From IMG/VR virus record IMGVR_UViG_3300047550_004303: 64,000 bases of DNA; one strand, written 5' to 3'. The notes under the pieces were generated by a model, which worked only from the letters and a program-made list of their open reading frames with translations, was not told the DNA's origin and ran no database searches. How positions within the stretch are numbered: the stretch's first letter is position 1; the number at the start of each line of letters is the position of its first letter. The translations under genes were made by a program, and so were the position numbers. The stretch is from a virus (taxonomy: Duplodnaviria; Heunggongvirae; Uroviricota; Caudoviricetes). Below are positions 3 to 24,353 of the stretch, in pieces.

Positions 3-3000
3 ACTGAATTTATTCAAAGTTGGACATCAATTGCATCAGGTGCATCACATTCTGCTGCAATTAGAACAGACGGTGGTTTGTTTACTTGGGGAGCAGGAAC
101 AAGTGGTAGATTAGGTGATAATACTACAATTGATAGATCAAGCCCAGTACAAATAGGAACGAGCAGTTGGACTAGTGTAAGTGCCGGAAATGCACACACA
201 GCAGCAATAAGACAGGATGGATCATTATTTACTTGGGGAAGAGGTCTTGATGGACAATTAGGTGATGACGGTTCCATTAATAGATCAAGTCCCGTGCAAA
301 TTGGAACTAGTAGTTGGACAAGTGTGAGTGCTGGTTTTGCACATACTGCTGCAATCAGAAATGGTAGTTCATTATTTACTTGGGGATGCGGTCTATGTGG
401 TGGATTAGGTGATGGAACTACTATTAATAAGTTTAGTCCAGTACAAATTGGTACAAGCAGTTGGACAAGTGTAAGTGCAGGATTTTATAATACCGCTGCA
501 ATACGTTTAGATGGTGCATTGTTTACATGGGGATATGGAAGAGGAGGAAATTTAGGTTGGCTAACCACTGTTCAAAGTTGGACAACAATTTCATCCGGAG
601 TAGGGAATGTCGCCGCTATTAGATCAGATGGTGGTTTGTTTACTTGGGGAGCAGGTAGTTCGGGTAGATTAGGGACAAATGACATTATTGATAGATCAAG
701 TCCGGTACAAATAGGAACAAGTAGTTGGACTAGTGTAGATGCAGGGGCCACTCACGTTGCTGCAATACGAAGTGACGGAAGATTATTTACTTGGGGAGCA
801 GGTGGTGCAGGTCGTTTGGGAAACAATACTACAATTGATAGATCAAGTCCGGTACAAATAGGAACTAGTAGTTGGACAACAGTAAGTGCAGGATGTTTTC
901 ATACTGCGGCAGTAAGATTAGATGGTTCAATATTCACTTGGGGATGCGGTGCAACAGGTAGATTAGGAGACAGTAATACCGTTAATAGGTCTAGTCCAGT
1001 ACAAATTGGAACAAGTAGTTGGACTACCGTTAGCGCAGGAAATAACTTTACAGCAGCCACTAGAAATGACGGAAGACTATTTACATGGGGAACTGGAGGT
1101 TGCGGACAATTAGGATGGTTAACTGCTGTTCAAAGTTGGAACGCGATAGCATCAGGAAATGGACAAGTATTAGCTATTAGATCAGATGGTCTTTTGTTTA
1201 CGTGGGGATCAGGTGGTGCAGGTAGATTAGGAAGCGGAGACACTTTTGATAGGTCAAGCCCAGTACAAGTAGGTGTAAGCAGCTGGACATCAGTAAGTGC
1301 AGGATTTTCACATAGCACAGCTATAAGAAGTGATGGAAGATTATTTACTTGGGGTTCTAATAGTGTAGGGCAATTAGGAGACAACACAACCGTAAACAGA
1401 TCAAGTCCAGTACAGGTAGGAACAAGCAGTTGGACTAGTATCAGTGCAGGAACCTATAGCACAGCAGCAATAAGACAGGATGGTTCTTTATTCATTTGGG
1501 GATTCGGAACATCAGGTAGATTGGGTGATGGCGGTACACTAAATAGATCCAGTCCAGTACAACTTGGAACAAGTAGCTGGACCACTGTTAGTACAGGAAA
1601 TGGAAATACCGCAGCAATAAGACAGGATGGTGCATTATTTACATGGGGGGATAATGCATCAGGACAATTAGGAGAAGTAACAGCAGTATTAAGCTGGAAT
1701 GCAGTTTCTTTTGGTCGTTCTCATGTTACGGCTATAACAAATACTAACATATTATATGCTTGGGGATTAAATAACTATGGACAATTGGGTGATGGTACTA
1801 CAATAAATAGATCCAGTCCAGTGCAAATTGGAACAAGCAGTTGGACCAGTGTAAGTGCCGGAGTTGCACACACAGCCGCAATTAGAACAGACGGTGCTTT
1901 ATTTACTTGGGGAGCAGGTGGTGCAGGTAGATTAGGTGATAGCACAACTATTAATAGATCAAGCCCAGTACAAATCGGCACAAGTAGTTGGACTGCCGTA
2001 GCTGCAGGTGGTTCTCATACAGTAGCTACCAAATCGGATAGTTTGTTATTTACTTGGGGATTAAATAATTTCGGGCAAATGGGCGACGGTACTACAACAA
2101 GTAAATCAAGCCCAGTGCAAATTGGCACAAGTAGTTGGACTACTATAAGTGCAGGACTTCAAATGACTGCTGCGATAAGAAATGACGACGGTAGATTATT
2201 TACTTGGGGAGCAGGTTCAAATGGTAGATTGGGTGATGGCGGTACACTAAATAGATCCAGTCCAGTGCAAGTTGGAACGAGTAGTTGGACAGCCGTAAGC
2301 GCAGGACAAGCACATGTAGTAGCAATAAGGCAAGGTGGTTCATTATTTACTTGGGGATATGGAACAAGTGGTAGATTAGGTGATAATTCAATTATTGCTA
2401 GGTCAAGCCCAGTACAAGTAGGAACAAATAGCTGGACAGCAGTAAGCGCAGGAGAAGCGCATACTGCTGCAATAACAATTAATAATACTTTATTTACATG
2501 GGGAAGAGGACTTGACGGACAATTAGGAGACGGCACTTCAGTTAACAGATCAAGTCCAGTACTAATCGGTGCTAGTACTTGGACTAAAGTAAGCGCAGGG
2601 GGAAATAATACAGGAGTAATAGGACTATTATCATCTGATTTACAAATTACAGGTGCGGCAAATACTGGTCAATTAGGCAACAACTCAACTACAAGTAGAT
2701 CGTCATTGGTGTTAGTGGGCAGTATTGCTGTAGAACCAAGATCATCACCTGTGCAAGTTGGATCAAGTAGTTGGACAACAGTAAGTGCAGGCGGGGATCT
2801 GTTCACTGCTGCTATCCGTAACGATGGAGGCTTATTCACCTGGGGACATAATCTTTTCGGTCAACTAGGAGATAATTCAACTATAAATCGATCCATTCCA
2901 GTGCAAATTGGCAATTGTAGTTGGACTAGTGTAAGTGCAGGAGTACTTAATTTTACTTCAGCAATTCGTAATGATGGTTTACTATTTACATGGGGCTGTA

Positions 3001-6000
3001 ATGGTTTAGGAGCATTAGGAGACGGTACGACAGTTAGAAGATCAAGTCCAGTACAAATAGGTACCGGAAGTTGGACTAGTATAAGCGCAGGTTCTGCATC
3101 TATGTCGGCTATTGATAACAGCTCTGTTGCATATCTTTGGGGATATGGTACTTCAGGTAGAATAGGTGATAACACTAATATAACTAGATCAAGTCCAGTA
3201 GTATTAGGCAATATCAACCCATTGCTAGTTTCTTCTCCAGTGCAAGTAGGCACTAGTAGTTGGATAGCAATAAGTGCAGGATATAATTTTGCAGCAGCTA
3301 TAAATTCAAACAATTTACTTTTTACTTGGGGTTTAGGAGCTAACGGTAGATTAGGTGATGGAAATACCATAGATAGATCAATCCCCGCCCAAATAGGATC
3401 AAGCAGCTGGACATTTGTAAGCGCAGGTGAAAATTCATCAAATCCTGCTGCAATAAGAAGTGATGGTGCTTTATTTACCTGGGGATTCAATTCATCAGGT
3501 CAATTGGGTGATAATACTACTATTAACAGATCAAGTCCAGTGCAAATTGGAACAAGTAGTTGGACATCAGTAAGTGCAGGACAAGATTTTATGTCAGCAA
3601 TTGATAGTACCGCTGTAGCATATATTTGGGGTGAAGGAAGTTCAGGAAGAATAGGTAATAACACCAATATAAGCAACTCAACACCATTAATTTTAGGTAA
3701 TATAAATCCAGTACAGGTTTTTTCTCCAGTTCAAGTTGGAACCAGCAGTTGGACATCAGTAAGTGCGGGATGTTGTTTTGCAGCAGCAATTAGAACAGAC
3801 AGTGCATTATTTACTTGGGGTTTAGGTAGTTCAGGACGTTTAGGAGATGGCACAACTATTAGTAAATCAAGCCCAGTACAAATTGGAACAAGCAGTTGGA
3901 CATCTGTAAGTGCTGGCTTCACTCATACCTCTGCAATAAGAAGTGATGGTGCTTTATTTACCTGGGGATTAAATTCATCAGGTCAATTGGGTGATAATAC
4001 TACTATTAACAGATCAAGTCCGGTACAGATAGGAACAAGTAGTTGGACTACAATTAGTAGTGGTGGTAATTCAACTTTAGGACTAGAAATTGATAACACA
4101 TTATATGCTTGGGGATTAGGAACTTCAGGACAATTAGGTGATAATACAACTATCGCTAGATCAAGTCCAGTTGTATTAGGAGGTATACTAATAACTTCTT
4201 TTTCTAATCCAGTTCAAATTGGAAATAGCAGTTGGACATCTGTAAGTGCAGGTGCAACGCACACTGCTGCAATAAGACAAGATAATGGTTTATTTGTTTG
4301 GGGTGCAGGCAGTTCGGGTAGATTAGGGACAAACGACACCATTAATAGATCAAGTCCAGTGCAAATTGGAACAAGTAGCTGGACTACCGTAAATGCAGGT
4401 GGTACTCACACAGCAGCAATAAGAATTGATGGTTCATTATTTACCTGGGGATTCAATTCATCAGGACAAATAGGTGACAATACCACTATAACCAGATCAA
4501 GTCCAGTACAAATTGGAACAAGCAGTTGGACTAGTGTAAGTGCAGGTATTACTCACACAGCAGCAATAAAACAAGATAGCTTATTATTTACATGGGGAGC
4601 AAATGCATCAGGACAAATAGGTGACAACACTACAATCAATAGATCAAGTCCAGTACAAGTAGGAGGACAACCAATTGATACTTCATCCCCTAATCAAATA
4701 GGCACAAGTAGTTGGACATCCGTAAGTGCAGGTGCGTCTCATTCTATGGCAATAAGAAGTGATAAATTATTATTTGCATGGGGGAGTAATAATCTTGGTC
4801 AACTTGGGGACGGCACAATATTGTCCAGATCAAGCCCTATACAAATTGGATCAAGTAGTTGGACTAGTATAAGTGCAGGTGCATCACATACTGCGGCAAT
4901 AAGAAGTGACAATGCATTATTTGTATGGGGAAGTAACAGTTCAGGGCAAATAGGTGATGATACTACAATAAACAGATCAAGTCCAGTTCAATTAGGAACA
5001 AGCAGTTGGACTAGTGTCAGTGCCGGTAAAAATGGCCCCTTTACTGCTGCAATCAAAAATAATGGCTCATTATTTACATGGGGATTAAACAGTAGCGGAC
5101 GTTTGGGAGACGGAACTACGGTTAACCGTAGTAGTCCAGTACAAATTGGTTCAAGCAGTTGGACCGCTGTAACTGCAGGTTACATAAATGCACATGCTAT
5201 ACGAAGTGATGGATATTTATATACATGGGGAAGTAATAGATATGGACAATTTGGAAATACTGCACCTCTAACTTGGAAGAATTTATCTGTTGTCGTTAAC
5301 ACAGTATTAGCGATACGTAATGACGATTTATTGTTTAGTTGGGGCCTTAATGATTTTGGACAAGTAGGTGACAACACCAAAATCAATAGGTCGAGTCCAG
5401 TACAAATCGGAACAAGCAGTTGGACTGCTATTAGTCAAGGAACCAATGTTAGTTTAGCTATACGTATCGACGGGCGATTATTTGCATGGGGTAGAGGAAC
5501 TAACGGAGCATTGGGACAAGGTAACCAAATTGATTATTCTAGTCCAGTACAAATAGGAACCAGCAGTTGGATTGCAATTGCAGCAGCAACCGAACTTACA
5601 AGTTTTGCTATTCGCGTTGATGGGAGACTTTTTAGTTGGGGTGATAATAGTGTAGGGCAATTAGGTCAAGGTTCAGGAGTAGCATTTGACACTAGCCCAG
5701 TGAACATAGGAACCAGCAGTTGGACTCAAGTTTCAGCCGGACGCAGACATGCAATTGCTTTGCGAAGTGACGGGGCGTTATTTACCTGGGGATCAAATAC
5801 ATCAGGACAATTAGGTGACGGAACAACAATAAACAAAAACAGTCCAGTGCAAATTGGATCCAGTAGTTGGACCGCAATTAGTGCAGGAGGTTATAACTCC
5901 GGTGCAATTCGCGCTGATGGTGCATTATTTACCTGGGGATCAAATACATCAGGACAAATAGGAGATAATACAAGAACTACAAACTCTAGTCCTGTGCAGA

Positions 6001-6680
6001 TAGGAACAAATAGTTGGACAGCGGTAAACATATCATTTGGAGGTAGTACCTGGGCAATTAATAACACTAATTTGATATATGGATGGGGGAGCGATTATTG
6101 GGGAGATGGAACAACTAATACCCGTTCAAGTCCAGTACAAATAGGTACACAAAGTTGGACTGTAATTCAAAGTAATGGCGGAATCACATCAAATTCACTT
6201 TTATATATGTGGGGGGGAGGAGGGTCAGGACAAATAGGAAATAACTCAACTGTCACACAGACTACTTCAACACTCACTGTTTTAGGCGGAATAAGCCAAT
6301 CATCATCACCAATACTTGTTAATTTTAATAGTTGGCGTCAAGTTAATAGTAATGCTTCACACACCGCTGCAATACGTAGTGACTATACACTTTTTACATG
6401 GGGAGCAGGTACATCAGGTAGATTAGGTGACGGAACAACAATTGACAGATCAAGTCCAGTACAAATTGGATCCAGTAGTTGGACCGCAATTAGTGCAGGC
6501 ACAGCACATACTGCTGCAATTAGAACAGACGGTCTTTTGTTTGCTTGGGGAGCAGGTAGTTCAGGACGTTTAGGTACCCAAAATACCATAGATAGATCAA
6601 GTCCAGTATCAATAGGTAGTAATAGTTGGTCTGCGATAGGTGCAGGTGACACATTTACTTTAGGATTATTAAAGGCGTAA
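3..6680 (+). CDS. Giant RCC1/BLIP-II-repeat beta-propeller protein (5' truncated by window edge), probable virion fibre/decoration protein
   Basis: Frame is open from base 3 (TEFIQSWTSIASG...), upstream of the TTG at 78. About 44 copies of a ~49-aa repeat SWxxVSAGxxHTAAIRxDGxLFTWGxxxxGxLGDxTTINRSSPVQIGTS, matching RCC1-type repeats. Virion role is inferred from context. Confidence 0.9.
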   Translation, partial: TEFIQSWTSIASGASHSAAIRTDGGLFTWGAGTSGRLGDNTTIDRSSPVQIGTSSWTSVSAGNAHTAAIRQDGSLFTWGRGLDGQLGDDGSINRSSPVQIGTSSWTSVSAGFAHTAAIRNGSSLFTWGCGLCGGLGDGTTINKFSPVQIGTSSWTSVSAGFYNTAAIRLDGALFTWGYGRGGNLGWLTTVQSWTTISSGVGNVAAIRSDGGLFTWGAGSSGRLGTNDIIDRSSPVQIGTSSWTSVDAGATHVAAIRSDGRLFTWGAGGAGRLGNNTTIDRSSPVQIGTSSWTTVSAGCFHTAAVRLDGSIFTWGCGATGRLGDSNTVNRSSPVQIGTSSWTTVSAGNNFTAATRNDGRLFTWGTGGCGQLGWLTAVQSWNAIASGNGQVLAIRSDGLLFTWGSGGAGRLGSGDTFDRSSPVQVGVSSWTSVSAGFSHSTAIRSDGRLFTWGSNSVGQLGDNTTVNRSSPVQVGTSSWTSISAGTYSTAAIRQDGSLFIWGFGTSGRLGDGGTLNRSSPVQLGTSSWTTVSTGNGNTAAIRQDGALFTWGDNASGQLGEVTAVLSWNAVSFGRSHVTAITNTNILYAWGLNNYGQLGDGTTINRSSPVQIGTSSWTSVSAGVAHTAAIRTDGALFTWGAGGAGRLGDSTTINRSSPVQIGTSSWTAVAAGGSHTVATKSDSLLFTWGLNNFGQMGDGTTTSKSSPVQIGTSSWTTISAGLQMTAAIRNDDGRLFTWGAGSNGRLGDGGTLNRSSPVQVGTSSWTAVSAGQAHVVAIRQGGSLFTWGYGTSGRLGDNSIIARSSPVQVGTNSWTAVSAGEAHTAAITINNTLFTWGRGLDGQLGDGTSVNRSSPVLIGASTWTKVSAGGNNTGVIGLLSSDLQITGAANTGQLGNNSTTSRSSLVLVGSIAVEPRSSPVQVGSSSWTTVSAGGDLFTAAIRNDGGLFTWGHNLFGQLGDNSTINRSIPVQIGNCSWTSVSAGVLNFTSAIRNDGLLFTWGCNGLGALGDGTTVRRSSPVQIGTGSWTSISAGSASMSAIDNSSVAYLWGYGTSGRIGDNTNITRSSPVVLGNINPLLVSSPVQVGTSSWIAISAGYNFAAAINSNNLLFTWGLGANGRLGDGNTIDRSIPAQIGSSSWTFVSAGENSSNPAAIRSDGALFTWGFNSSGQLGDNTTINRSSPVQIGTSSWTSVSAGQDFMSAIDSTAVAYIWGEGSSGRIGNNTNISNSTPLILGNINPVQVFSPVQVGTSSWTSVSAGCCFAAAIRTDSALFTWGLGSSGRLGDGTTISKSSPVQIGTSSWTSVSAGFTHTSAIRSDGALFTWGLNSSGQLGDNTTINRSSPVQIGTSSWTTISSGGNSTLGLEIDNTLYAWGLGTSGQLGDNTTIARSSPVVLGGILITSFSNPVQIGNSSWTSVSAGATHTAAIRQDNGLFVWGAGSSGRLGTNDTINRSSPVQIGTSSWTTVNAGGTHTAAIRIDGSLFTWGFNSSGQIGDNTTITRSSPVQIGTSSWTSVSAGITHTAAIKQDSLLFTWGANASGQIGDNTTINRSSPVQVGGQPIDTSSPNQIGTSSWTSVSAGASHSMAIRSDKLLFAWGSNNLGQLGDGTILSRSSPIQIGSSSWTSISAGASHTAAIRSDNALFVWGSNSSGQIGDDTTINRSSPVQLGTSSWTSVSAGKNGPFTAAIKNNGSLFTWGLNSSGRLGDGTTVNRSSPVQIGSSSWTAVTAGYINAHAIRSDGYLYTWGSNRYGQFGNTAPLTWKNLSVVVNTVLAIRNDDLLFSWGLNDFGQVGDNTKINRSSPVQIGTSSWTAISQGTNVSLAIRIDGRLFAWGRGTNGALGQGNQIDYSSPVQIGTSSWIAIAAATELTSFAIRVDGRLFSWGDNSVGQLGQGSGVAFDTSPVNIGTSSWTQVSAGRRHAIALRSDGALFTWGSNTSGQLGDGTTINKNSPVQIGSSSWTAISAGGYNSGAIRADGALFTWGSNTSGQIGDNTRTTNSSPVQIGTNSWTAVNISFGGSTWAINNTNLIYGWGSDYWGDGTTNTRSSPVQIGTQSWTVIQSNGGITSNSLLYMWGGGGSGQIGNNSTVTQTTSTLTVLGGISQSSSPILVNFNSWRQVNSNASHTAAIRSDYTLFTWGAGTSGRLGDGTTIDRSSPVQIGSSSWTAISAGTAHTAAIRTDGLLFAWGAGSSGRLGTQNTIDRSSPVSIGSNSWSAIGAGDTFTLGLLKA

Positions 6681-6723: not shown

Positions 6724-6738
6724 TAAATACAATAAATA
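6724..6738 (+). promoter_or_regulatory. Two tandem T4-like late promoter boxes (TAAATA)
   Basis: TAAATA at 6724-6729 and 6733-6738 in the intergenic gap upstream of the ATG at 6766; AAGG SD at about 6754. Confidence 0.55.
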
Positions 6739-10103: not shown

Positions 10104-10111
10104 TATAAATA
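10104..10111 (+). promoter_or_regulatory. T4 consensus late promoter TATAAATA
   Basis: Exact TATAAATA upstream of a GAGGA SD and the ATG at 10135; heads the glycan-modification locus. Confidence 0.7.
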
Positions 10112-15033: not shown

Positions 15034-15630
15034 ATGACACCAGAATCGACAAAACTAAACATGGGCTGTGGTTTTAAAAAGTTATTTGACCATTGGAATG
15101 TTGACATTGAACCAAAATGTAATCCAGATCAAGTACTTGATTTAGATCAAACACCCTGGCCATTTGAAGACAACTTTTTTACAAAAATTACTTGTGATAA
15201 CATCTTAGAACATTTAGGTCAAAATCCCAAAGTTTTTACCAATATAATCAAAGAAATGTATCGTGTTAGTCAAGATAAAGCAGAATGGTATATTTGTGTA
15301 CCACATCATCGTTGTGATTTGTTTTGGGATGATTATACTCATGTACGACCTCTTTCTGCTAAAACATTTAAAATGTTTGATCAAAAGTTTAACTATGACA
15401 CTATTCAACGTGGACTAAGTGAAAGTACATTTGGAATTTATCATTCGGTAGATTTAGACGTATATGATGCTACATATAACATTATTCCTTATTGGAGTTC
15501 ACAAGTAGAACAAGGTATGATGGGAAACAAAGAACTAGATATTAAACTAAACACAATGTCAAACATATGCGAGACATTGAACATTTTTATACGTGTTCAC
15601 AAACCAGGTAGATTTGAACATTTAGTTTAA
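15034..15630 (+). CDS. SAM-dependent methyltransferase (type 11-like)
   Basis: KLNMGCG motif I; DLDQTPWPFEDN; ILEHL; EMYRV. Confidence 0.75.
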   Translation: MTPESTKLNMGCGFKKLFDHWNVDIEPKCNPDQVLDLDQTPWPFEDNFFTKITCDNILEHLGQNPKVFTNIIKEMYRVSQDKAEWYICVPHHRCDLFWDDYTHVRPLSAKTFKMFDQKFNYDTIQRGLSESTFGIYHSVDLDVYDATYNIIPYWSSQVEQGMMGNKELDIKLNTMSNICETLNIFIRVHKPGRFEHLV

Positions 15631-15631
15631 T

Positions 15632-16363
15632 ATGTGGCATGTCTCTGACAAAATCAGAAGAAACGTTTTAGTTTCTTCTGATCAAGGATTAATGATTGTT
15701 AATAGATTTGACCACAATCAAAATATGGTTGGTAATGGACAATTCATTTTAGATCATGGTAATATTTGCACAGTAGAAGCAAATGCATGTATAAATGCTA
15801 TTCGTCACATTGAAAAACCAATCATATTTGATATTGGAGCAAACATAGGTGCATTCACTACTTGGATGTCAACTTACTTTCCAAATGGTAAAATTTATAG
15901 TTTTGAACCACAACGATTAGTTTTTCAAATGCTATGTGGTAATTTAGCAATCAACAATTTATTCAATGTACATGCGTATAACATGGCATTGGGGAAAGAA
16001 AATTCTAGAATAGAATTCTTAGAACCTAATTACAATCAACCAAATGATTTTGGAACTTTCAGTTTAGTTAACGACACTATAAATGAAAAATCTGACCGAT
16101 CCATCATTGATCTTTGTACATTAGACGCATTTGTAAATGGTTTCAATATAACAAATATTGATCTCATTAAAGTTGATGTTGAAGGAATGGATATTGATGT
16201 ACTACAAGGTGCAAAAACAACTATTGAACGTTTCAAACCTGTAATTTTCGTAGAATACTTTGATAATAATCGTTCAATTAAAGAAGAATTAGAATCTATT
16301 TTTAATCAATTGAATTACAGTATAGAGATTATAGGCAATAACATTTTAGGAATAAGCAAATGA
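15632..16363 (+). CDS. FkbM-family methyltransferase
   Basis: IFDIGANIG, SFEPQ, IKVDVEGMD, PVIFVE motifs. Confidence 0.85.
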   Translation: MWHVSDKIRRNVLVSSDQGLMIVNRFDHNQNMVGNGQFILDHGNICTVEANACINAIRHIEKPIIFDIGANIGAFTTWMSTYFPNGKIYSFEPQRLVFQMLCGNLAINNLFNVHAYNMALGKENSRIEFLEPNYNQPNDFGTFSLVNDTINEKSDRSIIDLCTLDAFVNGFNITNIDLIKVDVEGMDIDVLQGAKTTIERFKPVIFVEYFDNNRSIKEELESIFNQLNYSIEIIGNNILGISK

Positions 16364-17175
16364 ACGAAAAAATCAAAATCAATTATGCTCTTCAGATGTG
16401 TGATGTAAGAAGTTACCAAGGTAATAAAAGATTTTGCACCGATAACAGGACTGAACTATCAAAAAAATCTTTGGTATCTTTTTTGAATTCTATTAATTTT
16501 TGTATTAACAAAGAGCCTAAAACTTTTCACGAGGTTAAAATTTTTGCAGACGATTGTTCTGACGAGTTAAAAACATATATTGATAATTGCGTTGAAAAAA
16601 ACATATCAGAACAATTAAGTATTGAAGTCGAACATTTAAACAAAGCAGGCATAGCTAACAGTATTCAATATTGTTATGAATGGTTAAAAGACAATGGTTC
16701 AAATTTAGTTTATCAAGTACAAGATGATTATATTTTTACTGAGCCAGCACTTTATCATTCAATTGATATGTTTTACCAATTATATCAAAACTACAATACA
16801 CATCCAATTATCTGCCCATACATAGATCCTGATTTTATGAGAAATTACAAAGGTAGGTCTGTACCTAGATTAATTGAATTAGGTAAGCACAGTTATTGGT
16901 GTCAGGTTTATGACACTAGTTGCAGTTTTTTAACTAGTCAACATCAATTTGTACAACATTTAGATTTATATGATGTTTTTTACGACTTGATTAGAAAAAA
17001 AATTATAAATGGAAACGTCATTGATTTAGAAAACAAATCATTAAATTATATGTTTACACAAAGAGGTGTGTTAGGAGTTACTCCCATCAATGGATTAACT
17101 TTTCATATGCAAACTGATTCAGAAAAAGATCCATATATAGATTGGAAACCAATTTGGGATAGTATAATCATATGA
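16360..17175 (+). CDS. Putative GT-A fold glycosyltransferase
   Basis: IFADDCS and VYQVQDDY (DxD-like) motifs; cluster context. Confidence 0.55.
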   Translation: MNEKIKINYALQMCDVRSYQGNKRFCTDNRTELSKKSLVSFLNSINFCINKEPKTFHEVKIFADDCSDELKTYIDNCVEKNISEQLSIEVEHLNKAGIANSIQYCYEWLKDNGSNLVYQVQDDYIFTEPALYHSIDMFYQLYQNYNTHPIICPYIDPDFMRNYKGRSVPRLIELGKHSYWCQVYDTSCSFLTSQHQFVQHLDLYDVFYDLIRKKIINGNVIDLENKSLNYMFTQRGVLGVTPINGLTFHMQTDSEKDPYIDWKPIWDSIII

Positions 17176-17831
17176 AAAAAATACTTATAGCTACACCATG
17201 TTTAGATCAAAAAGTTGATGCTTATTTTGTGAATAGTTTGTGCGAAAGTATTAAGTTAGGGTTAAGACACGGTTTGGATATTAAATGTATATTTTTAGCC
17301 AACGAAAGTATTTTGCCAATGGCGAGGAATGAATTATTCAAATTAGCATACAACGAAAATTACGACTCTATGGTTTTCATAGATGATGATGAATCATGGG
17401 AACCAGCTGGATTAATTGAAATTATATTATCCGAAAAGGATGTAGTTGCTATGCCTGTAGTAAACAAAGGAGACAAAAAAATAGAATTCAACATCTACTA
17501 CGACCAAATAAAAAAAGATGTTGATGGGTATTTTGAAATAAAATCTACAGGAACTGGTTTCTTGAAAATGTCAAGAAAAGTAGTTGTTGATTTGTATGAA
17601 TCAAATACTGAGTTAGTTTTTAGAAATAAAAAATTAAGAAATATTTGCGAGTTTACGTATATCAATGGATTGTTTGTAGGTGAAGATATTACGTTGTGTA
17701 GAAAAATAAAAGAGTTAGGTTACAAAATTTGGGTTAATCCTAAATATACCGCATATCATATTGGTAACAAAATGTATAAGGGTGATTTCTTAAATAGCAT
17801 TAGCAAAAATGAATCTAACTCTATATTGTAA
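17172..17831 (+). CDS. Putative GT-A fold glycosyltransferase
   Basis: ILIATP start; ARNELF; MVFIDDD; GTGFLKMSR; GEDITLC. Confidence 0.65.
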   Translation: MKKILIATPCLDQKVDAYFVNSLCESIKLGLRHGLDIKCIFLANESILPMARNELFKLAYNENYDSMVFIDDDESWEPAGLIEIILSEKDVVAMPVVNKGDKKIEFNIYYDQIKKDVDGYFEIKSTGTGFLKMSRKVVVDLYESNTELVFRNKKLRNICEFTYINGLFVGEDITLCRKIKELGYKIWVNPKYTAYHIGNKMYKGDFLNSISKNESNSIL

Positions 17832-18540
17832 TAGTTTTGAAGGCAAAAAACCATTGCATACACAATGCAATCAAAAAACATTAATGTGCGGTTCTTATTA
17901 CTTGTCTGATCCTATTAAACAAGATTGCATTAATAATGGTTATATTTTAGATGATACTTTTCAAAATGTTTCACACTTAAATAATTTGCTGGGTGATTTA
18001 ACCGGGTTATATTGGATATGGAAAAATACAAATGAAGAATTTGTAGGCACTAACCAATACAGAAGATTCTATGACGATCATGAGTTGAAAACATTATTTC
18101 CCCTTGATAAAAAAACGTTATATGTTTCAGATTTTGTAACTTTTAGAATAAGTGTTTGGGATCAATATATTGCATCACACGGTGATTTGGGCATGAAGCT
18201 TTTGAAAAAGGCTATCTCGTTGAATAACGTTTCAATAGATGAACGTATGTTTAACAGTCTTTTTCATACTAATAAACTATCAACCTGTAATACTTTTTTT
18301 GCTCATAAGACCCTATTTGATAAAGTCTGTCAAATATTGTTTGATATAATTTTTGAGCTATACAGAGGATCTAAATATCTATTAGAATTCACACAATTTG
18401 GTATTCATACTGGAAGGAACCCCAACGATAAACGTCTACTAGCATTTTTAGCAGAACGAATTTTGAATATCATCTATTTCAATTCTAATTACTTTTTGGG
18501 CATAAACAATATTGTCCCAATCAAATACTATACAATATAA
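17809..18540 (+). CDS. DUF4422-like putative glycosyltransferase
   Basis: LTGLYWIWKN...VGTNQYRRFY and AFLAERI motifs. Confidence 0.6.
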   Translation: MNLTLYCNSFEGKKPLHTQCNQKTLMCGSYYLSDPIKQDCINNGYILDDTFQNVSHLNNLLGDLTGLYWIWKNTNEEFVGTNQYRRFYDDHELKTLFPLDKKTLYVSDFVTFRISVWDQYIASHGDLGMKLLKKAISLNNVSIDERMFNSLFHTNKLSTCNTFFAHKTLFDKVCQILFDIIFELYRGSKYLLEFTQFGIHTGRNPNDKRLLAFLAERILNIIYFNSNYFLGINNIVPIKYYTI

Positions 18541-18543: not shown

Positions 18544-19818
18544 ATGGACAACATCTTAAAACAAATAAGCGAACAATTTCATCCTTCATACATGCCAAAC
18601 TATGACAATTTTGTTCCAAAAGAATCAAAGGTTCTTTATTCAGGACCATACTGGGATAGCAAAGAACTATATGCTATTTTAAATGCAGTATTGAAGGGTA
18701 ACTGGATAGTAAGCGGTGAACTAGTAGAAAAATTTCAATCAGAATTCAGTGAAAAGTTTAAAGTCAAATTTTCACATATGGTAAACTCTGGTAGTTCGGC
18801 TAATCTTACAATGATTACTGCATTGAAGAAAAGATTCAGATGGAAAGACTTTGATGAAATCATTGTTTCACCAGTTGGTTTTCCAACTACTATCGCACCA
18901 ATAATTCAAAACAACTTAAAACCAGTTTTTATTGACATTGAGTTCAATACACTAAACTTTGATATCAATCAGATTGAAGATGCGATTACAAATAAAACGA
19001 AAGCAATCTTTGTTTCACCAGTTTTAGGTAATCCACCTGATCTTGATGAAATAAAGAAGATATGTGACAAACATAATATTCTTTTAATCGGAGACAATTG
19101 CGACAGTCTAGGATCAAAATATAAAGGTAAATATATACATGAATACTACTACAGTTGGAGTTGTAGTTTTTATCCGGCACATCATATATCCACTGGTGAG
19201 GGTGGAATGGTATGCACCAACGACCAACATCTATATGACCTAACACGTAGTATTAGCTGGTGGGGTAGAGATTGTTATTGTGTGGGTGTTAACAATACAC
19301 TACCATGCGGTACTTGTGGTAAACGTTTTGATTATTGGTTAGAAAACTATGATGGTATAATTGATCACAAGTATATCTACGGAAACATAGGGTATAATCT
19401 TAAGCCATTAGACTTACAGGGTGCAGTTGGTTCTGTACAATTAACCAAATTTGAAGAGATTGATACAAAACGTAAAGCACATAAAAACTTCATAGAAGAA
19501 TCTTGCCATAAACATCTTGATGTGCGTAAGGTAAAAATATTGCAGGACAGTGATCCATGTTGGTTTGGAGTACCTATTCTTTGCAAAGAACAAGGTCAAA
19601 AAGAACTATTAGTTGATTACTTTGAAAGCAACAAGATTCAAACTAGAAATTACTTTGGAGGGAACATTCTATTTCATCCAGCATATAAACATTTAGATGA
19701 CTACAAAAAGTTTCCAAATGCAAACAAAACACTTGATTTGGTTTTCTTTTTAGGTTGCAGCCCTGCTTATAACGACAAAGTACTTCAATACATTGATGAG
19801 GTTATAAAGGCATGGTAA
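18544..19818 (+). CDS. rfbH: CDP-4-keto-6-deoxy-D-glucose 3-dehydrase (E1, RfbH/DdhC), DegT/DnrJ PLP/PMP family
   Basis: VNSGSSANL; SFYPAHHISTGEGG with His at the usual Schiff-base Lys position; Fe-S motif GRDCYC...CGTCGKRF; YNLKPLDLQGAVG; QTRNYFGGN. Confidence 0.85.
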   Translation: MDNILKQISEQFHPSYMPNYDNFVPKESKVLYSGPYWDSKELYAILNAVLKGNWIVSGELVEKFQSEFSEKFKVKFSHMVNSGSSANLTMITALKKRFRWKDFDEIIVSPVGFPTTIAPIIQNNLKPVFIDIEFNTLNFDINQIEDAITNKTKAIFVSPVLGNPPDLDEIKKICDKHNILLIGDNCDSLGSKYKGKYIHEYYYSWSCSFYPAHHISTGEGGMVCTNDQHLYDLTRSISWWGRDCYCVGVNNTLPCGTCGKRFDYWLENYDGIIDHKYIYGNIGYNLKPLDLQGAVGSVQLTKFEEIDTKRKAHKNFIEESCHKHLDVRKVKILQDSDPCWFGVPILCKEQGQKELLVDYFESNKIQTRNYFGGNILFHPAYKHLDDYKKFPNANKTLDLVFFLGCSPAYNDKVLQYIDEVIKAW

Positions 19819-20633
19819 ACTTGTTTGGTAAAGGATTTATAGGTTCACACTATTCTAGTGTGTATCCATGTATAGCTAATCATAGAAATGATCTTGTACC
19901 AAAAACAAATAATATACTTTACCTAATTAGTACCACTGATAACTACAATGTAAAAATTAATCCATACATTGATATTGAAACCAATTTAACCACTTTGATA
20001 CGTGTATTAGAAAATGCTAGACAATTTGAAGATGTAGTATTTAACTTTGCAAGTTCTTGGTTTGTTTATGGTGATGTACCTTTAAATGCTGATGAAAATA
20101 GTTATTGCAATCCAAAAGGATTTTATTCAATAACTAAACGTTCAGCAGAACAACTTTTAATTTCCTATTGTGAAACGTATGGAATAAAATATAGGATACT
20201 ACGATTTGCTAATGTATTGGGGTTAGGTGACAAAAATGTTTCTAACAAGAAAAATGCATTGACCTTTTTGCTCAACAAATTAAAAAACAACGAAGAAATA
20301 AATTTATATGATGATGGTAATTTTTACAGAGATTACATACATGTCAATGATGTTTGCAATGCAATCAATTTAATTTTAACTAATGGAAATACCAACGAAA
20401 TTTATAATGTAGGTACTGGAAACCCTGTGTTGTTTAAAGATGCAATCAACTACATTGTAAAAACATCTAAATCAAATAGTACAGTAAATGTGGTCGAACA
20501 AAGTGATTTTCATAAAATAGTTCAAACTAAATCTTTTTATATGAACTGTGACAAGTTGAGAAATTTAGGCTTCATACCAAAACATAATATATACACTATT
20601 ATTGATGAATTGTTAGATGAAGAACGCAATTGA
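19812..20633 (+). CDS. NAD-dependent epimerase/dehydratase (extended SDR), possible NDP-sugar 4-reductase
   Basis: GKGFIG nucleotide-binding loop, YSITK (YxxxK), RDYIHVNDVCNAI, EIYNVGTG. Confidence 0.8.
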   Translation: MVNLFGKGFIGSHYSSVYPCIANHRNDLVPKTNNILYLISTTDNYNVKINPYIDIETNLTTLIRVLENARQFEDVVFNFASSWFVYGDVPLNADENSYCNPKGFYSITKRSAEQLLISYCETYGIKYRILRFANVLGLGDKNVSNKKNALTFLLNKLKNNEEINLYDDGNFYRDYIHVNDVCNAINLILTNGNTNEIYNVGTGNPVLFKDAINYIVKTSKSNSTVNVVEQSDFHKIVQTKSFYMNCDKLRNLGFIPKHNIYTIIDELLDEERN

Positions 20634-21348
20634 TGTTGTTATTCCCACAATGTGGCGTGATGAAAAATTTACTGAATATTTAGCAGAATATTGCGCTAGT
20701 AGCTATATCAATAAGATTATTTTGATAGATAACGACCAATCAAAAAGACCAAATAGTGACATTTTACGTCATCCAAAACTAGAATTAGTTTCATATGGAA
20801 GAAACATATATGTGAATCCAGCCTGGAATGAAGGATATTATCGTAGTAAGAGTGATATTTTATGTATATTAAATGATGATATTCATGTTAATGATACATT
20901 GTTTTATTACATGTCTGAGTTAGACTTTACTGAAATAGATTTAATAGGAGTTCATCTTAAAGGTAGTGTAGATAATTATCATATAGTTGAGCATCCTGAC
21001 CTTCAAGATGAATTGATAAAATTAAAAGTAAACAAAAAGCAACCAATTGGTGGGCAAAGTTATGCATTTGGTGTTTGCATGTTTATCAAAAGAAGTTCTT
21101 ATAGAGTTATTCCAAGTTTATATCAAATATGGTTCGGGGATGATTATTTGATACAGTGTTGTAAAAACATATATACATTGAAGACTAGTAAAATTAAGGG
21201 TGAAATAAGCAAAACCATTGTTGCGTTTGATAAGGACAGTGACGTACAAAAAAGAATCAATTTAGATTCAAAAAATGCATACAAATTTAACCATTTTTTA
21301 AATTCAAAAAATTGGGATCTAGTTAATCAATATAGACTAAAGGAATAA
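20617..21348 (+). CDS. GT2-family glycosyltransferase
   Basis: DVVIPTM, IILIDND, VNPAWNEG, ILNDDI, WFGDDY. Confidence 0.8.
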   Translation: MKNAIDVVIPTMWRDEKFTEYLAEYCASSYINKIILIDNDQSKRPNSDILRHPKLELVSYGRNIYVNPAWNEGYYRSKSDILCILNDDIHVNDTLFYYMSELDFTEIDLIGVHLKGSVDNYHIVEHPDLQDELIKLKVNKKQPIGGQSYAFGVCMFIKRSSYRVIPSLYQIWFGDDYLIQCCKNIYTLKTSKIKGEISKTIVAFDKDSDVQKRINLDSKNAYKFNHFLNSKNWDLVNQYRLKE

Positions 21349-21351
21349 TTG

Positions 21352-22251
21352 ATGTCAAAGTATAGTATTTTTCATCTTCAAGGTGGAATAGGAAAACATA
21401 TTGCTGCAACTGCCGTTGCAAAAACAATTAAAAACAATCATCCAGACAGAAAATTAATAGTGGTATGTGCTTATCCAGACTTGTTTATAAATTTAGATTT
21501 TGTTCATCGTGTATTTCAAATAGGCAATACCAGTTATTTTTATCAAAACTACGTACAAGATAAAGACTCAATACTATTTCATCATGAACCGTATTACACC
21601 ACAAATCATATTCATAAAAGAAAAAAACTGATTGAAAATTGGTGTGAAATGTATGATTTAAAGTATTCAGGTGAAACACCAATATTGAAATTTAACAAAT
21701 TACAATATGATATGTCGAAGAAATTTTGGACAAAAAATAAACCTATAATGGTTTTGCACACAAATGGAGGCATGATGACAACTGACGCAAAACCATATGC
21801 ATGGACAAGAGATATGCCAGAAGATATTGCACAAGAAATTGTGAATTATTTCCACAAAGAATATCATGTATATCAAATAACAAAAATGAATTCACCAAAG
21901 TTAAGAAATGCTGAACACATTTTTGCGACTCCGCAACATTCGTTGAATTTAATGGAATTGTTTAGCATATTACTTCATGCTAGAAAAAGAGTATTTATTG
22001 ATAGCTGTATGCAACATGCAGCCTCAGCGTTGAAAAAACCTAGTACCGTATTATGGAACGGAACAAGTCCAAATGTATTTGGATATGATATGCATGAAAA
22101 TTTATGCACAGATATACCATATGATTTTAAATTACCAGGAAGCTATCTATTTGATTTTGATTTTAATGGCAATGAGGTTGAATATCCGTTTACCGAAGAC
22201 ACTAAATTATTTAATATTGATAGGATAATAGAGTCAATAAATAAACAATAA
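21352..22251 (+). CDS. GT9-like glycosyltransferase
   Basis: GGIGKHIAAT N-terminal loop and FIDSCMQHAASAL; ATG 21352 fits the AAGGA SD better than the TTG at 21349. Confidence 0.65.
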   Translation: MSKYSIFHLQGGIGKHIAATAVAKTIKNNHPDRKLIVVCAYPDLFINLDFVHRVFQIGNTSYFYQNYVQDKDSILFHHEPYYTTNHIHKRKKLIENWCEMYDLKYSGETPILKFNKLQYDMSKKFWTKNKPIMVLHTNGGMMTTDAKPYAWTRDMPEDIAQEIVNYFHKEYHVYQITKMNSPKLRNAEHIFATPQHSLNLMELFSILLHARKRVFIDSCMQHAASALKKPSTVLWNGTSPNVFGYDMHENLCTDIPYDFKLPGSYLFDFDFNGNEVEYPFTEDTKLFNIDRIIESINKQ

Positions 22252-22260
22252 GGAAAAAGT

Positions 22261-23226
22261 ATGAAGGATGTGATCAGAGAAATTATTAGAGAAGAGATGA
22301 TTAGAAATAAAAAAACATATTACTTTATGTCTGGTCTTCCCAGATCAGGTAGTACATTGTTATCTGCGATACTAAATCAAAATCCTAGATTTTACTCTGG
22401 ACCAAGTTCACCAGTTGTATCAACAATGATTACGTTAGAACAATCATTGTCCAATGATGAGTTATATTTGGCTTATCCAAAACAACAACAAGCAGCAAAG
22501 ATAATTTCAGGAGTTCTAGAAAATTGGTATAGCGACGTTGAAAAGCCTGTAATTGTTGACAAAAACAGGTCATGGGTAAATAGATTGCATTATATTCCAG
22601 GTTATTTTAATATCCAACCAAAAGTTTTATGTCCAGTACGTGACATATCAGAAATACTTGCCTCTTTTATAAGTATGTATCGTAGAAATCCATTTTCAGG
22701 ACAAGGACGCATTCCATTCTTGGATGAAATGCTAATTAAAAGCAACATCCCGCTTAGTGATGATAATAGATGTGAAGTTCTATGTAGCACCGGAGGAATA
22801 GTAGGAGCTAGTTATAGCGGAATCAAACAAGTATTTGCTGAAGGCAAAGAAAAACAAATTCACTTGATTGAATATAACGATTTGATTAACAATCCAAATG
22901 AAACCATGAAAAAGATTTATGATTTCTTAGGCGAAGAATACTACCAACATGATTTTACTAACATTGAAAACATACATAGAGAAAATGATGAAATGGTATA
23001 TGGATTAAAGGACATGCATAATGTGAGGAAAACATTAGGCAAAACTTCTATTGATCCAAAAAATATTTTATCAGGAAATATTCTTTCCAAATGTTCAGGT
23101 GCTGAGTTTTGGAGAAACCTTAATTTTGATCCTGAATTACAAACCGCTGAAGAAACTAAGTATTTAGATGACTTTGATTCAATTAAAAATAGTGTAGCAG
23201 CAAATAATGAAACAATTATAGGATAA
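22261..23226 (+). CDS. Sulfotransferase (second paralog)
   Basis: FMSGLPRSGSTL, VRDISEILASF; C-terminal GLKDMHNVRK parallels GLPNLHRIKP in the first paralog. Confidence 0.85.
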   Translation: MKDVIREIIREEMIRNKKTYYFMSGLPRSGSTLLSAILNQNPRFYSGPSSPVVSTMITLEQSLSNDELYLAYPKQQQAAKIISGVLENWYSDVEKPVIVDKNRSWVNRLHYIPGYFNIQPKVLCPVRDISEILASFISMYRRNPFSGQGRIPFLDEMLIKSNIPLSDDNRCEVLCSTGGIVGASYSGIKQVFAEGKEKQIHLIEYNDLINNPNETMKKIYDFLGEEYYQHDFTNIENIHRENDEMVYGLKDMHNVRKTLGKTSIDPKNILSGNILSKCSGAEFWRNLNFDPELQTAEETKYLDDFDSIKNSVAANNETIIG

Positions 23227-23236
23227 AGGAAAAACT

Positions 23237-23497
23237 ATGAGCAGAGAACCAATGACACAGGAACAAATAGAAGGAACCGTTCGTGCAGCAAGAGATAGTG
23301 TTTGGGTAGTTAATGATGAATTGCAAAAACTATCGAACGGTGGTTCTTGGACAGAACAAAGAAAAGGCAATATTGAACGTAATGTTGTTCATCTTGAACT
23401 AGTAATGTCAAATCCAGAAATTTCAGGCTCTGGACTGGATCTTTCTGATCTTACTGCTGCAATAAATGCAGGAAAAATAGAATTAGCAAATCATTAA
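23237..23497 (+). CDS. Small hypothetical protein
   Basis: 86-aa ORF with AAGGA SD, tightly packed between neighbours. Confidence 0.7.
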   Translation: MSREPMTQEQIEGTVRAARDSVWVVNDELQKLSNGGSWTEQRKGNIERNVVHLELVMSNPEISGSGLDLSDLTAAINAGKIELANH

Positions 23498-23498
23498 A

Positions 23499-24353
23499 AT
23501 GGCAATAAAAATTCTAGTAATGGGATTGCCTGGTGCAGGCAAAACCTACTTCTCTGAACGTCTTAAAACTTATCTTGAAGAAAATTCAAGTATAGATTCT
23601 ATGCCAGCTTACAGAATGGGGCAATATGAATTGCCACCAAGATATTACAAATCAACTGTAAAATGGTTCAATGCTGATGAAGTAAGAAAAAAGTATAATG
23701 ATTGGGATTTCAGTAAAGAAGGAAGAATACGCCAAAGTCTACGCATGGCAGAGTTTGCGTTACAAACTACTGATGATTATGTGATATGTGATTTTGTAGC
23801 ACCTCTTCCCGAAATGCGTCATAACTTTAAAGCAGATTGGACTATATGGATAGATACAATTGATGCTGGCAGATATGAAGATACAAACAAAGTTTTCGTA
23901 TCACCTGAAATATATGACTTCAGAATTACAGAGCAAAATGCTGAGAAGTGGGTAGAGTTTGTAGGTAATCATATTTTACAAAATCGTAGAAGACCTACTT
24001 TTAGTTGGAAAAAAGAAACTGCTATGTTATTAGGTAGATATCAACCATGGCATAAAGGTCATCGTGCATTATTTGAACGTGCATTAGGAAAAACAGGTCA
24101 AGTATGCATCATGATACGTGATTGTCAAGGTTGGAATAGTAGTAATCCATTCGATTTTGAACAGGTTCAAAACTTCATCAAGCGTGATCTTGATCCCTTA
24201 TATCAAGGTCAATATACTATTCAACTTGTACCCAACATTACTGAAATAGTATATGGAAGAGATGTTGGATATAAAATAACACAAGAAGTTTTTAGTGATG
24301 AGATACATGATATCTCAGCAACTAAAATACGAAAAGCTATGGGCTTAGTATAA
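23499..24353 (+). CDS. Adenylyl-sulfate kinase-like P-loop domain fused to a HIGH-superfamily nucleotidyltransferase domain
   Basis: GLPGAGKT P-loop, NADEVR and RIRQSLRM (CysC-like); C-terminal GRYQPWHKGH (HIGH-like) and ISATKIR (KMSKS-like). Confidence 0.75.
   Translation: MAIKILVMGLPGAGKTYFSERLKTYLEENSSIDSMPAYRMGQYELPPRYYKSTVKWFNADEVRKKYNDWDFSKEGRIRQSLRMAEFALQTTDDYVICDFVAPLPEMRHNFKADWTIWIDTIDAGRYEDTNKVFVSPEIYDFRITEQNAEKWVEFVGNHILQNRRRPTFSWKKETAMLLGRYQPWHKGHRALFERALGKTGQVCIMIRDCQGWNSSNPFDFEQVQNFIKRDLDPLYQGQYTIQLVPNITEIVYGRDVGYKITQEVFSDEIHDISATKIRKAMGLV

Follow-up and report, generated by a model that had tools for sequence, protein, structure and literature searches.

A candidate phage cassette for late O-glycosylation, sulfation and methylation of RCC1 fibre proteins

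What is the substrate of the sugar-, sulfate- and methyl-transferring enzymes that are encoded behind two RCC1 beta-propeller repeat genes in the tailed-phage record IMGVR_UViG_3300047550_004303? The window analysed here is a 64,000-nt stretch of this record. On its plus strand, downstream of the two RCC1 genes, lies an enzyme locus of 18 tightly packed or overlapping open reading frames (ORFs) extending from 10135 to 24353, while the half of the window on the minus strand contains genes for T4-type baseplate proteins (Table 1; locus genes are designated below by their first coordinate). The reading to which the analysis leads is that the locus is probably a late, cytoplasmic O-glycosylation, sulfation and methylation system that decorates the phage's own RCC1 fibres before particle assembly.

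An earlier note, made from the DNA letters and their translations, had described the same succession of two RCC1 genes and a same-strand modification locus, and it is confirmed: the two RCC1 ORFs have Pfam and PHROGs matches, and 18 ORFs follow on the same strand. The two sulfotransferases, three methyltransferases, oxygenase and nucleoside diphosphate (NDP)-sugar enzymes that it listed are likewise found by family searches, and its adenylyl sulfate (APS)-kinase fusion by Foldseek. The count of about eight glycosyltransferase-like genes is a fair one, with uneven support: the assignment is solid for 10135 (by fold), 13191 (as a paralogue), 14354 (GT25) and 17809 (DUF4422), weak or below cut-off for 20617 and 21349, and no more than a lead for 16360 and 17172.

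The lead glycosyltransferase and its RCC1 neighbours

The first enzyme of the locus, 10135, has no Pfam match and scores 16.8 bits on TIGR02193, against a cut-off of 185. Direct sequence searches of the PDB returned nothing for it, nor for 13191, 11216 or 15034. Its AlphaFold model is confident (pLDDT 92.6, pTM 0.92; 33-sequence alignment) and consists of about 60 residues of helical hairpins (residues 3-62) followed by a GT-B fold. The best PDB matches of the model are GT9 enzymes, namely Veillonella 3tov, WaaF, WaaC and the protein O-heptosyltransferase TibC; the entries 3tov, 1psw, 4rap/4rb4 and 2h1h are all matched at probability 1.0. Among Swiss-Prot models the first rank is held by Caulobacter FlbA (= FlmG, P21296), whose residues 230-593 align with a template modelling (TM) score of 0.80 by query, an E-value of 9.5e-20 and 21% identity. 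The next matches in that set (lipopolysaccharide (LPS) heptosyltransferases, BimC, BAHT, Aah and TibC) reach TM scores of 0.43-0.52 and E-values of 1e-8 to 1e-5. FlmG is a soluble protein that is both required and sufficient for the cytoplasmic O-glycosylation of flagellin, its N-terminal domain giving the substrate specificity (PMC7591256). Judged by hydropathy, 10135 is also soluble (highest 19-residue average 1.25, no stretch above 1.6), and the same scan detects no transmembrane or hydrophobic segment in any of the 18 locus proteins. Across alignment A1 there is little or no variation in the GT9 donor-site block (H278-L-A-A-A) and an N-terminal G-D98 motif, which argues for 10135 being an active enzyme.

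A set of 5.8 billion proteins contains 2015 close relatives of 10135, and an exhaustive search yielded 32,592 clusters at E < 1e-3. Many of the relatives are giant cellular proteins of 1400-3100 aa (P0121-P0137 and similar), in which three to six tandem FlmG-like glycosyltransferase domains lie between long arrays of tetratricopeptide repeats (TPR), an architecture for which we know of no described function. The multi-domain relatives score 109-118 bits on Pfam GT9, and one weak phage homologue of 10135 is annotated 'tibC'. Within the locus, 13191 is a distant paralogue: it is 27% identical to the 10135 homologue of contig L004 (see below) and 22-26% identical to TPR proteins of phages S-SRM01, AG-345-E08 and BUCT-ZZ01, and scores 18.9 bits on PF01075 (cut-off 22). 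Ahead of its GT-B fold 10135 has helices at residues 3-62 only; its paralogue 13191 is a longer protein, and so are the cyanophage homologues that are annotated as TPR proteins (436-449 aa).

What ties this enzyme to RCC1 is conserved gene order. A profile scan of IMG/VR found 593 relatives of 10135, and the viral-locus counts given here refer to the best 80 of them (36-78% identity), those for companion genes being limited by flank length. An RCC1 gene lies in the flank of the 10135 homologue in 78 of the 80 loci, on the same strand in 77, and usually ends 0-150 bp upstream. The other two loci begin at the glycosyltransferase gene and have no upstream DNA, so that the two genes are adjacent in all 78 informative loci; the co-occurrence of RCC1 genes with the enzymes, proposed as a check in the earlier note, is thus borne out for the lead glycosyltransferase. 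RCC1 is the only constant among the neighbours across the 78 loci.

The association recurs in sequenced phages. Among 50,697 phage records only seven have a homologue of 10135, and the top three, BUCT-ZZ01, AG-345-E08 and S-SRM01, are also the top three RCC1 matches; no near-identity DNA match of the locus was found in the same records. In S-SRM01 the homologue (gp338, 'TPR protein') is placed among three RCC1 genes, after the baseplate and long-tail-fibre genes, and the cluster is interleaved with a 2-oxoglutarate (2OG) oxygenase, a sulfotransferase, a glycosyltransferase and an epimerase; RCC1 proteins of this phage are gp335, gp337 and gp344. The same mix is found in AG-345-E08. The RCC1 neighbour in BUCT-ZZ01 is a 10135-type domain fused to a 15034-type methyltransferase, beside a tail-fibre gene, and the RCC1 protein of that phage has the accession UTS52180. 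A T4-like contig of 152 kb from a metagenome, L004, has a minimal module: tail-fibre genes, an RCC1 protein of 1771 aa, the glycosyltransferase (77% identical), a sulfotransferase, a 15034-type methyltransferase and the kinase fusion, with the genes for gp13, gp14, gp15, terminase, sheath and tube directly downstream.

The pairing is largely absent from the cellular control, for which the 80 nearest homologues (28-42% identity) were taken from prokaryote contigs at one genome per species. Only four of these have an RCC1 gene within 10 kb. Three of the four are the second to fourth best matches and lie on short contigs of metagenome-assembled genomes (MAGs), which may be phage DNA; in the fourth the RCC1 gene is 9 kb away on the other strand. 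In a maximum-likelihood tree, a branch with 98% support splits the cellular sequences from the phage side, where 69 of the 72 rows are RCC1-linked and the other three have 0-1.5 kb of upstream DNA. By these comparisons the RCC1-glycosyltransferase association is one old specialised clade, whose synteny has been kept through very deep divergence in mosaic genomes. An RCC1-glycosyltransferase pair is present in three contigs binned with Patescibacteria and Bdellovibrio MAGs (L091, L092 and L093; with a sulfotransferase in L091). These fall inside the phage clade and are probably mis-binned phage or prophage DNA.

The RCC1 proteins themselves are rich in potential O-linkage residues. Serine plus threonine make up 26.9% of the longer one, with 0.6% lysine, and 24.9-26.9% of the two, with about 1% lysine, which bears out the Ser/Thr richness seen earlier in the repeats. 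Alignment of 46 repeats gives a 49-aa consensus, with at least nine positions per repeat occupied by Ser or Thr in 60-95% of copies. The longer protein is 45-48% identical to the 1771-aa RCC1 protein of L004. The shorter one begins with a 75-aa non-RCC1 piece (6766-6990) containing three copies of G-x-D-(I/L)-x-x-L-(F/Y); a search for a shared virion-attachment module found no homologue of these 75 residues, either in the window or among the retrieved loci.

RCC1 proteins were detected by mass spectrometry (MS) in particles of Cronobacter phage GAP32, according to a passage in PMC5259590, and three phrog_4219 RCC1 proteins were detected in the same way in particles of E. coli phage W70 (PMC11370258). 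Together with the position of the genes among those for fibres, baseplate and neck, this makes it likely, by analogy, that the RCC1 proteins of the cassette phages are virion appendages. It had been suggested that such RCC1 proteins condense DNA (PMC7247149), an idea that finds no support in this analysis. An apparent link between RCC1 and a hypervariable region of prasinoviruses in one paper was discarded, 'RCC' there denoting culture-collection strain numbers.

Core genes, candidate sulfate supply and late-type motifs

Companions of the lead gene in the 80 viral loci include the 15034-type methyltransferase (54 loci), a sulfotransferase (50), GT25 (26), FkbM (19) and the kinase fusion (19), and homologues of 16360, which has no Pfam or NCBIfam match, occur in 13. 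Two metagenomic proteins, P0138 (60% identical) and P0225, have the glycosyltransferase domain fused to a sulfotransferase. Compared with L004, the window has the same four enzymes with some 14 extra genes inserted. As judged from gene content, the conserved core consists of RCC1, the glycosyltransferase, the sulfotransferase, methyltransferase 15034 and the kinase fusion. The other 14 or so form an accessory set whose make-up changes from one related phage to the next, as in O-antigen loci. The oxygenase recurs in the RCC1-linked clusters of S-SRM01 and AG-345-E08.

The fusion protein 23499 is the candidate source of the sulfate donor 3'-phosphoadenylyl sulfate (PAPS). Its N-terminal domain is well modelled, and the top 20 PDB matches in Foldseek are all APS kinases (7yq1, 1m7g, PAPSS1/2). 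Homologues of 23499 exceed the PF01583 cut-off (35 bits), and the P-loop and a D-D-I-R...F-S...R motif resembling an APS-binding one are conserved; the nucleotidyltransferase domain is joined to an APS-kinase fold and not to a PfkB sugar kinase. The C-terminal 110 residues or so carry the HxGH and ISxTxxR nucleotidyltransferase motifs and resemble nicotinamide mononucleotide (NMN) adenylyltransferases. No ATP-sulfurylase family match was obtained for this domain, which is poorly modelled (pLDDT about 50-65) and may have either an ATP-sulfurylase-like or an NMN adenylyltransferase-like active site. The fusion keeps company with sulfotransferases, since 18 of the 19 viral loci that encode it also encode one, and it occurs in none of about 20 loci of a subclade devoid of sulfotransferases. 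At least 7915 relatives of the fusion are present in metagenomes. A role in PAPS supply is supported for the kinase half; that the second half acts as the sulfate adenylyltransferase is only a hypothesis.

The late-promoter consensus that had been noted at 10104 is indeed present as a TATAAATA box, and the locus does end at a single terminator, a bidirectional hairpin with a T-run that is the strongest terminator-like site within 6000-25500. Within the window the sense motif ATAAATA is found at 18 sites, of which seven fall 17-53 nt ahead of a start codon; the zone 8-60 nt before starts represents 3.4% of the sequence. Copies precede the second RCC1 gene, the start of the locus, the second sulfotransferase gene, the gp6-like gene (55673) and a structural gene ending at 63630, and TATAAATA directly precedes the gp25-like gene (56170) too. 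Sigma-70-like sites are depleted in 6000-25500 (72, versus 102.1 in shuffles, sd 8.8). This pattern of motifs fits late co-expression of the locus with the structural genes. A second strong hairpin (24711-24738) is found immediately upstream of a minus-strand TATAAATA box (24703-24710) before the gene ending at 24684, a terminator-then-late-promoter arrangement.

What the enzymes may decorate

That the enzymes would decorate RCC1 appendages is suggested by strong comparative evidence. In the scheme proposed here, 10135 would recognise the RCC1 repeats and O-link a first sugar to some of the conserved Ser/Thr residues. The GT25, DUF4422, GT2-like and further GT9-like proteins would then extend or vary the glycan, with an amino-deoxy sugar supplied by the DegT aminotransferase and the short-chain dehydrogenase/reductase (SDR). 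The three S-adenosylmethionine (SAM) methyltransferases and the two PAPS-type sulfotransferases would cap glycan or protein hydroxyls, some of which the 2OG oxygenase may create, and activated sulfate would come from the APS-kinase/adenylyltransferase fusion. The predicted operons described by Iyer et al. in 2010 (PMC2938197) raise the possibility that sulfate and methyl groups may be placed on protein hydroxyls rather than on sugar. Taken to its full extent, the scheme describes a self-sufficient pathway in aquatic T4-like and jumbo phages, in which FlmG-like O-glycosylation of RCC1 fibres and a minimal PAPS synthase of a hitherto unrecognised type, feeding the sulfotransferases, yield sulfated, methylated glycoprotein fibres on the virion. 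To this complete version we give tentative credence only.

The earlier note had suggested N-glycosylation of N-x-S/T sequons by a cytoplasmic enzyme of the HMW1C type (GT41). A check of the sequons against shuffled residues did reveal an excess, with 61 sequons versus 37.3 expected (z 4.6) and 31 versus 19.4 (z 3.2) in the two RCC1 proteins. However, NRS within the conserved repeat consensus T-x-N-R-S-S-P-V-Q, where N is present in about half of the repeats, accounts for 27 of the sequons. The excess thus goes back to one inherited repeat motif and not to independent occurrences, N-R-S-S-P belonging to the conserved core, and is not taken as a sign that sequons were selected; S/T-x-N, the motif in reverse, is common too (32 and 23). 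Moreover, Pfam and NCBIfam detect no GT41 domain among the locus proteins, and the GT41 structures SPY and OGT are remote matches to 10135 (E about 3e-4 to 2e-3, TM 0.25-0.30). The lead enzyme instead resembles FlmG and TibC, which O-glycosylate Thr/Ser. O-glycosylation of this kind is, on the structural models, the better working model, and we regard the N-linked mechanism as very improbable. Hypermodification of phage DNA, with modified bases as the substrate of the sugar, methyl and sulfate enzymes, was rejected as scarcely credible. DNA glycosylation is known in phages, and a 2OG oxygenase and sugar-nucleotide enzymes are present here, but the locus contains no nucleotide-metabolism or base-modifying partner, the oxygenase belongs to PF13759 and not to TET/JBP, the genes lie in a structural block behind a late-type motif, and the RCC1 tie has no DNA-modification rationale.

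The main competing explanation, above all for the accessory genes, is remodelling of the host envelope. The enzymes would act at the cytoplasmic face on intermediates of host LPS core, O-antigen or capsule, adding heptosyl, galactosyl, amino-sugar, methyl or sulfate groups, and thereby block superinfection or alter the lysing cell; RCC1 adjacency would then reflect a shared 'host surface' theme and not an enzyme-substrate relation. The families invite this explanation, since GT9-like, GT25 ('LPS biosynthesis'), FkbM/RfbT-like, DegT and SDR proteins are typical of LPS and O-antigen loci, and WaaC and WaaF are among the structural matches of 10135. Soluble glycosyltransferases can use host lipid carriers and exporters, and cyanophage glycosyltransferase clusters have been interpreted as remodelling host surface polysaccharide (Iyer et al., PMC7824862, section 3.4.10). 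Nevertheless, the locus encodes no initiating phosphoglycosyltransferase, Wzx/Wzy flippase or polymerase, ligase or ABC exporter detectable by Pfam, nor any transmembrane segment. FlmG, a protein glycosyltransferase, is a far better match to the lead enzyme than WaaC/WaaF are (TM 0.80 vs about 0.5), the shortage of sigma-70-like sites speaks against early promoters, and superinfection exclusion does not predict adjacency to RCC1 in 78 of 78 loci inside late structural blocks. Envelope remodelling is therefore considered unlikely.

A different target or fate for the products has to be weighed as well. The modified protein might be the neighbouring tail fibre or a 5677-aa protein encoded in the window; RCC1 might be modified but released or kept inside the cell; or the propellers might bind the product non-covalently, in a lectin-like manner. 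Tail-fibre genes adjoin the module in L004, S-SRM01 and BUCT-ZZ01, no virion proteome exists for any cassette carrier, and bacterial oxygenase/methyltransferase/sulfotransferase/PAPS synthetase operons are predicted to modify tail-collar or collagen-like proteins (PMC2938197). Against this, RCC1 is the sole invariable neighbour, and RCC1 proteins of other phages are virion components in the MS data cited above, for GAP32 as reported in the passage mentioned. In addition, glycosyltransferase-linked RCC1 proteins are unusually Ser/Thr-rich (20-27%, median 23.9%, 77 viral loci, vs 13-19% in six RCC1 proteins of phages without the enzyme), a contrast that is confounded by phylogeny and non-RCC1 domains. 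We hold such alternative targets and fates to be rather improbable.

Decoration of the RCC1 fibres thus remains the preferred reading. What stands of the modified propeller fibres first proposed is an enzyme cassette tied to RCC1 proteins that are likely virion appendages, as indicated by the constant adjacency, the fibre and neck gene blocks, the MS data for GAP32 and W70 and the shared late-type motif. Several points weigh against it, in addition to the confounded Ser/Thr contrast, the earlier cyanophage interpretation and the fact that GT9, GT25, FkbM/RfbT-like and DegT are classic LPS/O-antigen families. There is no chemical evidence for a modified RCC1 protein in any phage, and the case for late expression is a sequence motif only. 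Essentially a single clade accounts for the RCC1 linkage, which is conserved synteny and not many independent gains. For five accessory genes, which lack homologues in the 80 viral loci, operon membership is the only tie to RCC1. Where FlmG has a long TPR substrate-binding domain, 10135 has about 60 residues of helical hairpins. Finally, the window yielded no pathway for a donor sugar of the FlmG (pseudaminic acid) or GT9 (ADP-heptose) type: no locus protein matches NeuB or a CMP-nonulosonate synthetase (Pfam, PHROGs, NCBIfam), or belongs to the ADP-heptose supply families GmhA, HldE or GmhB (Pfam, NCBIfam). ADP-heptose might come from the host.

Known systems, and other features of the window

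The FlmG system offers the closest parallel to the proposed scheme. In both cases a soluble cytoplasmic enzyme, with helical or TPR repeats ahead of its GT-B domain, is encoded with the assembly genes of its substrate; this substrate, a presumed one in the case of 10135, is a repetitive protein rich in Thr/Ser and destined for an external filament. FlmG differs in that its long TPR domain binds flagellin and its sugar is pseudaminic acid made via NeuB. The presumed phage substrate is a beta-propeller rather than flagellin, and in the phage the enzyme is accompanied by genes for sulfotransferases, methyltransferases and an APS kinase. TibC and Aah (BAHT) are likewise GT9-related GT-B enzymes; they hyper-glycosylate Ser in the tandem repeats of an adhesin encoded next door (TibA, AIDA-I) and match the 10135 model at probability 1.0. 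Their structural match is lower (TM 0.43-0.48), however, their substrate is a beta-helix and not a propeller, and no ADP-heptose pathway is seen in the window. WaaC and WaaF (CAZy GT9) share with 10135 the GT-B fold and the donor-binding signature D/C-T-S-x-x-H-L-A-A-A, but their acceptor is a membrane glycolipid, 10135 scores far below the family cut-off on TIGR02193, and the structural match is weaker than that of FlmG.

Virus-encoded glycosyltransferases that modify the virus's own structural proteins are also a feature of mycobacteriophages and of giant viruses (capsid or fibril), where other enzyme families and other substrates are involved. Freeman and colleagues are said to have described glycosylation of mycobacteriophage virions in Cell Host Microbe in 2023. 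To our knowledge, no sulfotransferase or PAPS-supply gene has been reported in the mycobacteriophage and giant-virus systems. Sulfation does figure in the bacterial operons predicted by Iyer et al. in 2010, which combine a hydroxylase, a sulfotransferase and a PAPS synthetase with phage tail-collar or collagen-like proteins that would be modified directly (PMC2938197). As in the window, oxygenase, methyltransferase, sulfotransferase and PAPS-synthesis genes stand beside a fibrous structural protein predicted to be the substrate; unlike it, these operons are cellular and have neither an FlmG-like glycosyltransferase nor RCC1, and they too are a prediction only. The fusion 23499 has its counterpart in the bifunctional PAPS synthases. 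It shares with them the APS-kinase fold and the co-occurrence with sulfotransferases, and, as in animal PAPSS, the kinase comes first and a nucleotidyltransferase-superfamily domain second. The difference is that the C-terminal domain of 23499 is like NMN and pantetheine-phosphate adenylyltransferases and not ATP sulfurylase.

By analogy with these systems, virus-encoded decoration of the virus's own structural proteins would be of an already known kind, and what would be new is the combination of a flagellin-type cytoplasmic O-glycosyltransferase with a sulfation arm. Phages with documented glycosylation of their own particles are very few; in the literature we found sulfation for none, nor any publication describing RCC1 together with the enzyme cassette. 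If the proposal is true, a very common aquatic phage group, as judged from the 593 IMG/VR relatives of the lead enzyme and at least 7915 kinase-fusion proteins, chemically tailors its host-recognition appendages. With a varying accessory set, host range, particle stability and evasion of grazing or defence would then gain a further, non-genetic layer at the level of the glycan. FlmG-type cytoplasmic O-glycosyltransferases would acquire a second, independent class of substrate, and 23499 would be a compact candidate PAPS-making enzyme. A sulfated structural protein or glycan would furthermore be a first for bacteriophages, produced by a gene family found in thousands of environmental phage contigs. 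Two cyanophages that carry the cassette, S-SRM01 and BUCT-ZZ01, are in culture.

Table 1. Genes and signals of the window (PLP, pyridoxal phosphate; AF2, AlphaFold2; AFDB, AlphaFold database)
Feature	Position	Strand	Basis or remark
Giant RCC1 beta-propeller repeat protein, >2225 aa, 5' end cut by window	3..6680	+	PHROG 7220/4219/16766; Pfam RCC1/WD40_RLD; proposed substrate and virion appendage
(A)ATAAATA late-type promoter-like motif	6732..6738	+	27 nt before second RCC1 gene
Second RCC1 repeat protein, 1108 aa	6766..10092	+	Pfam RCC1 625 bits over 19 stretches; WD40_RLD 679 bits
TATAAATA, T4-type late-promoter consensus	10104..10111	+	23 nt before ATG of 10135
Lead enzyme, soluble FlmG-like GT-B glycosyltransferase (GT9-related), short N-terminal helical hairpins	10135..11187	+	AF2 fold; Swiss-Prot AFDB match; RCC1 synteny
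Sulfotransferase 1 (core)	11216..12010	+	Pfam Sulfotransfer_1/3; P-loop-like G-L-P-R-S-G-S-T near N-terminus
2OG-Fe(II) oxygenase	12001..12585	+	PF13759, 69 bits
Class I SAM methyltransferase (accessory)	12587..13171	+	Methyltransf_23/11; no homologue in 80 viral loci
Second GT9-like glycosyltransferase, longer N-terminal extension, distant paralogue of 10135	13191..14372	+	Paralogy; weak Pfam GT9
GT25-family glycosyltransferase	14354..15031	+	PF01755, 44 bits; in AG-345-E08 too
Class I SAM methyltransferase (core)	15034..15630	+	phrog_6636; atlas lead 0.99, Methyltransf_11 clusters
FkbM-family methyltransferase, RfbT-like	15632..16363	+	PF05050, 77 bits
Probable GT2-like glycosyltransferase (lead only)	16360..17175	+	Atlas feature score 0.98 to viral clusters, 30-49% of members with GT2
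phrog_1574 protein, faint glycosyltransferase similarity	17172..17831	+	
DUF4422 (glycosyltransferase-like) protein	17809..18540	+	PF14393, 87 bits
DegT/DnrJ/EryC1 PLP aminotransferase (NDP-aminosugar synthesis)	18544..19818	+	PF01041, 239 bits
Short SDR NDP-sugar epimerase/dehydratase	19812..20633	+	PF01370, 100 bits; G-K-G-F-I-G-S nucleotide-binding motif, residues 6-12
Weak GT2-like protein	20617..21348	+	Pfam GT2 E 0.009, below cut-off; NCBIfam HpsN E 1.4e-4, far below cut-off
Weak GT9-like protein	21349..22251	+	Pfam GT9 E 0.007, below cut-off; phrog_8954; TIGR02193 E 0.004
Internal ATAAATA motif	22237..22243	+	17 nt before second sulfotransferase
Sulfotransferase 2	22261..23226	+	Sulfotransfer_3/1; 35% identical to S-SRM01 sulfotransferase
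86-aa protein	23237..23497	+	No match in family searches
APS-kinase domain and small HxGH/ISxTxxR adenylyltransferase-like domain; proposed PAPS supply	23499..24353	+	Foldseek; motifs
Bidirectional hairpin terminator, 10-bp stem, T-runs on both strands	24357..24380		Between convergent gene blocks
gp6-like wedge protein	52305..55673	-	T4-type baseplate
gp25-like protein	55721..56170	-	T4-type baseplate
gp5-like hub protein	56179..59850	-	T4-type baseplate
gp53-like protein	61894..62205	-	T4-type baseplate

The gp6-like protein shares about 33% identity with its counterparts in jumbo myoviruses of 350-490 kb such as Sinorhizobium Phosso, Xanthomonas XbC2, Serratia BF and Agrobacterium Atu_ph07. 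Adjoining its gene is a single minus-strand ORF of 5677 aa (35270-52303), which presumably encodes a giant protein of the baseplate or of a fibre; its only Pfam match, CBM_5_12, is below threshold. The RCC1 genes have a G+C content of 39-42%, versus 28-35% in the enzyme locus, which may be explained by the Gly/Ser/Thr-rich repeat composition or by different histories. In the block convergent with the enzyme locus, a 222-aa protein (25262-25930, minus strand) matches phrog_15752, a T7 gp0.7-type protein kinase/host-transcription inhibitor, at E 1e-10. A 412-aa protein (33248-34486, minus strand) combines a Peptidase_G2/intramolecular-chaperone autoproteolytic domain with tail-fibre PHROG matches and looks like a self-cleaving fibre or spike.

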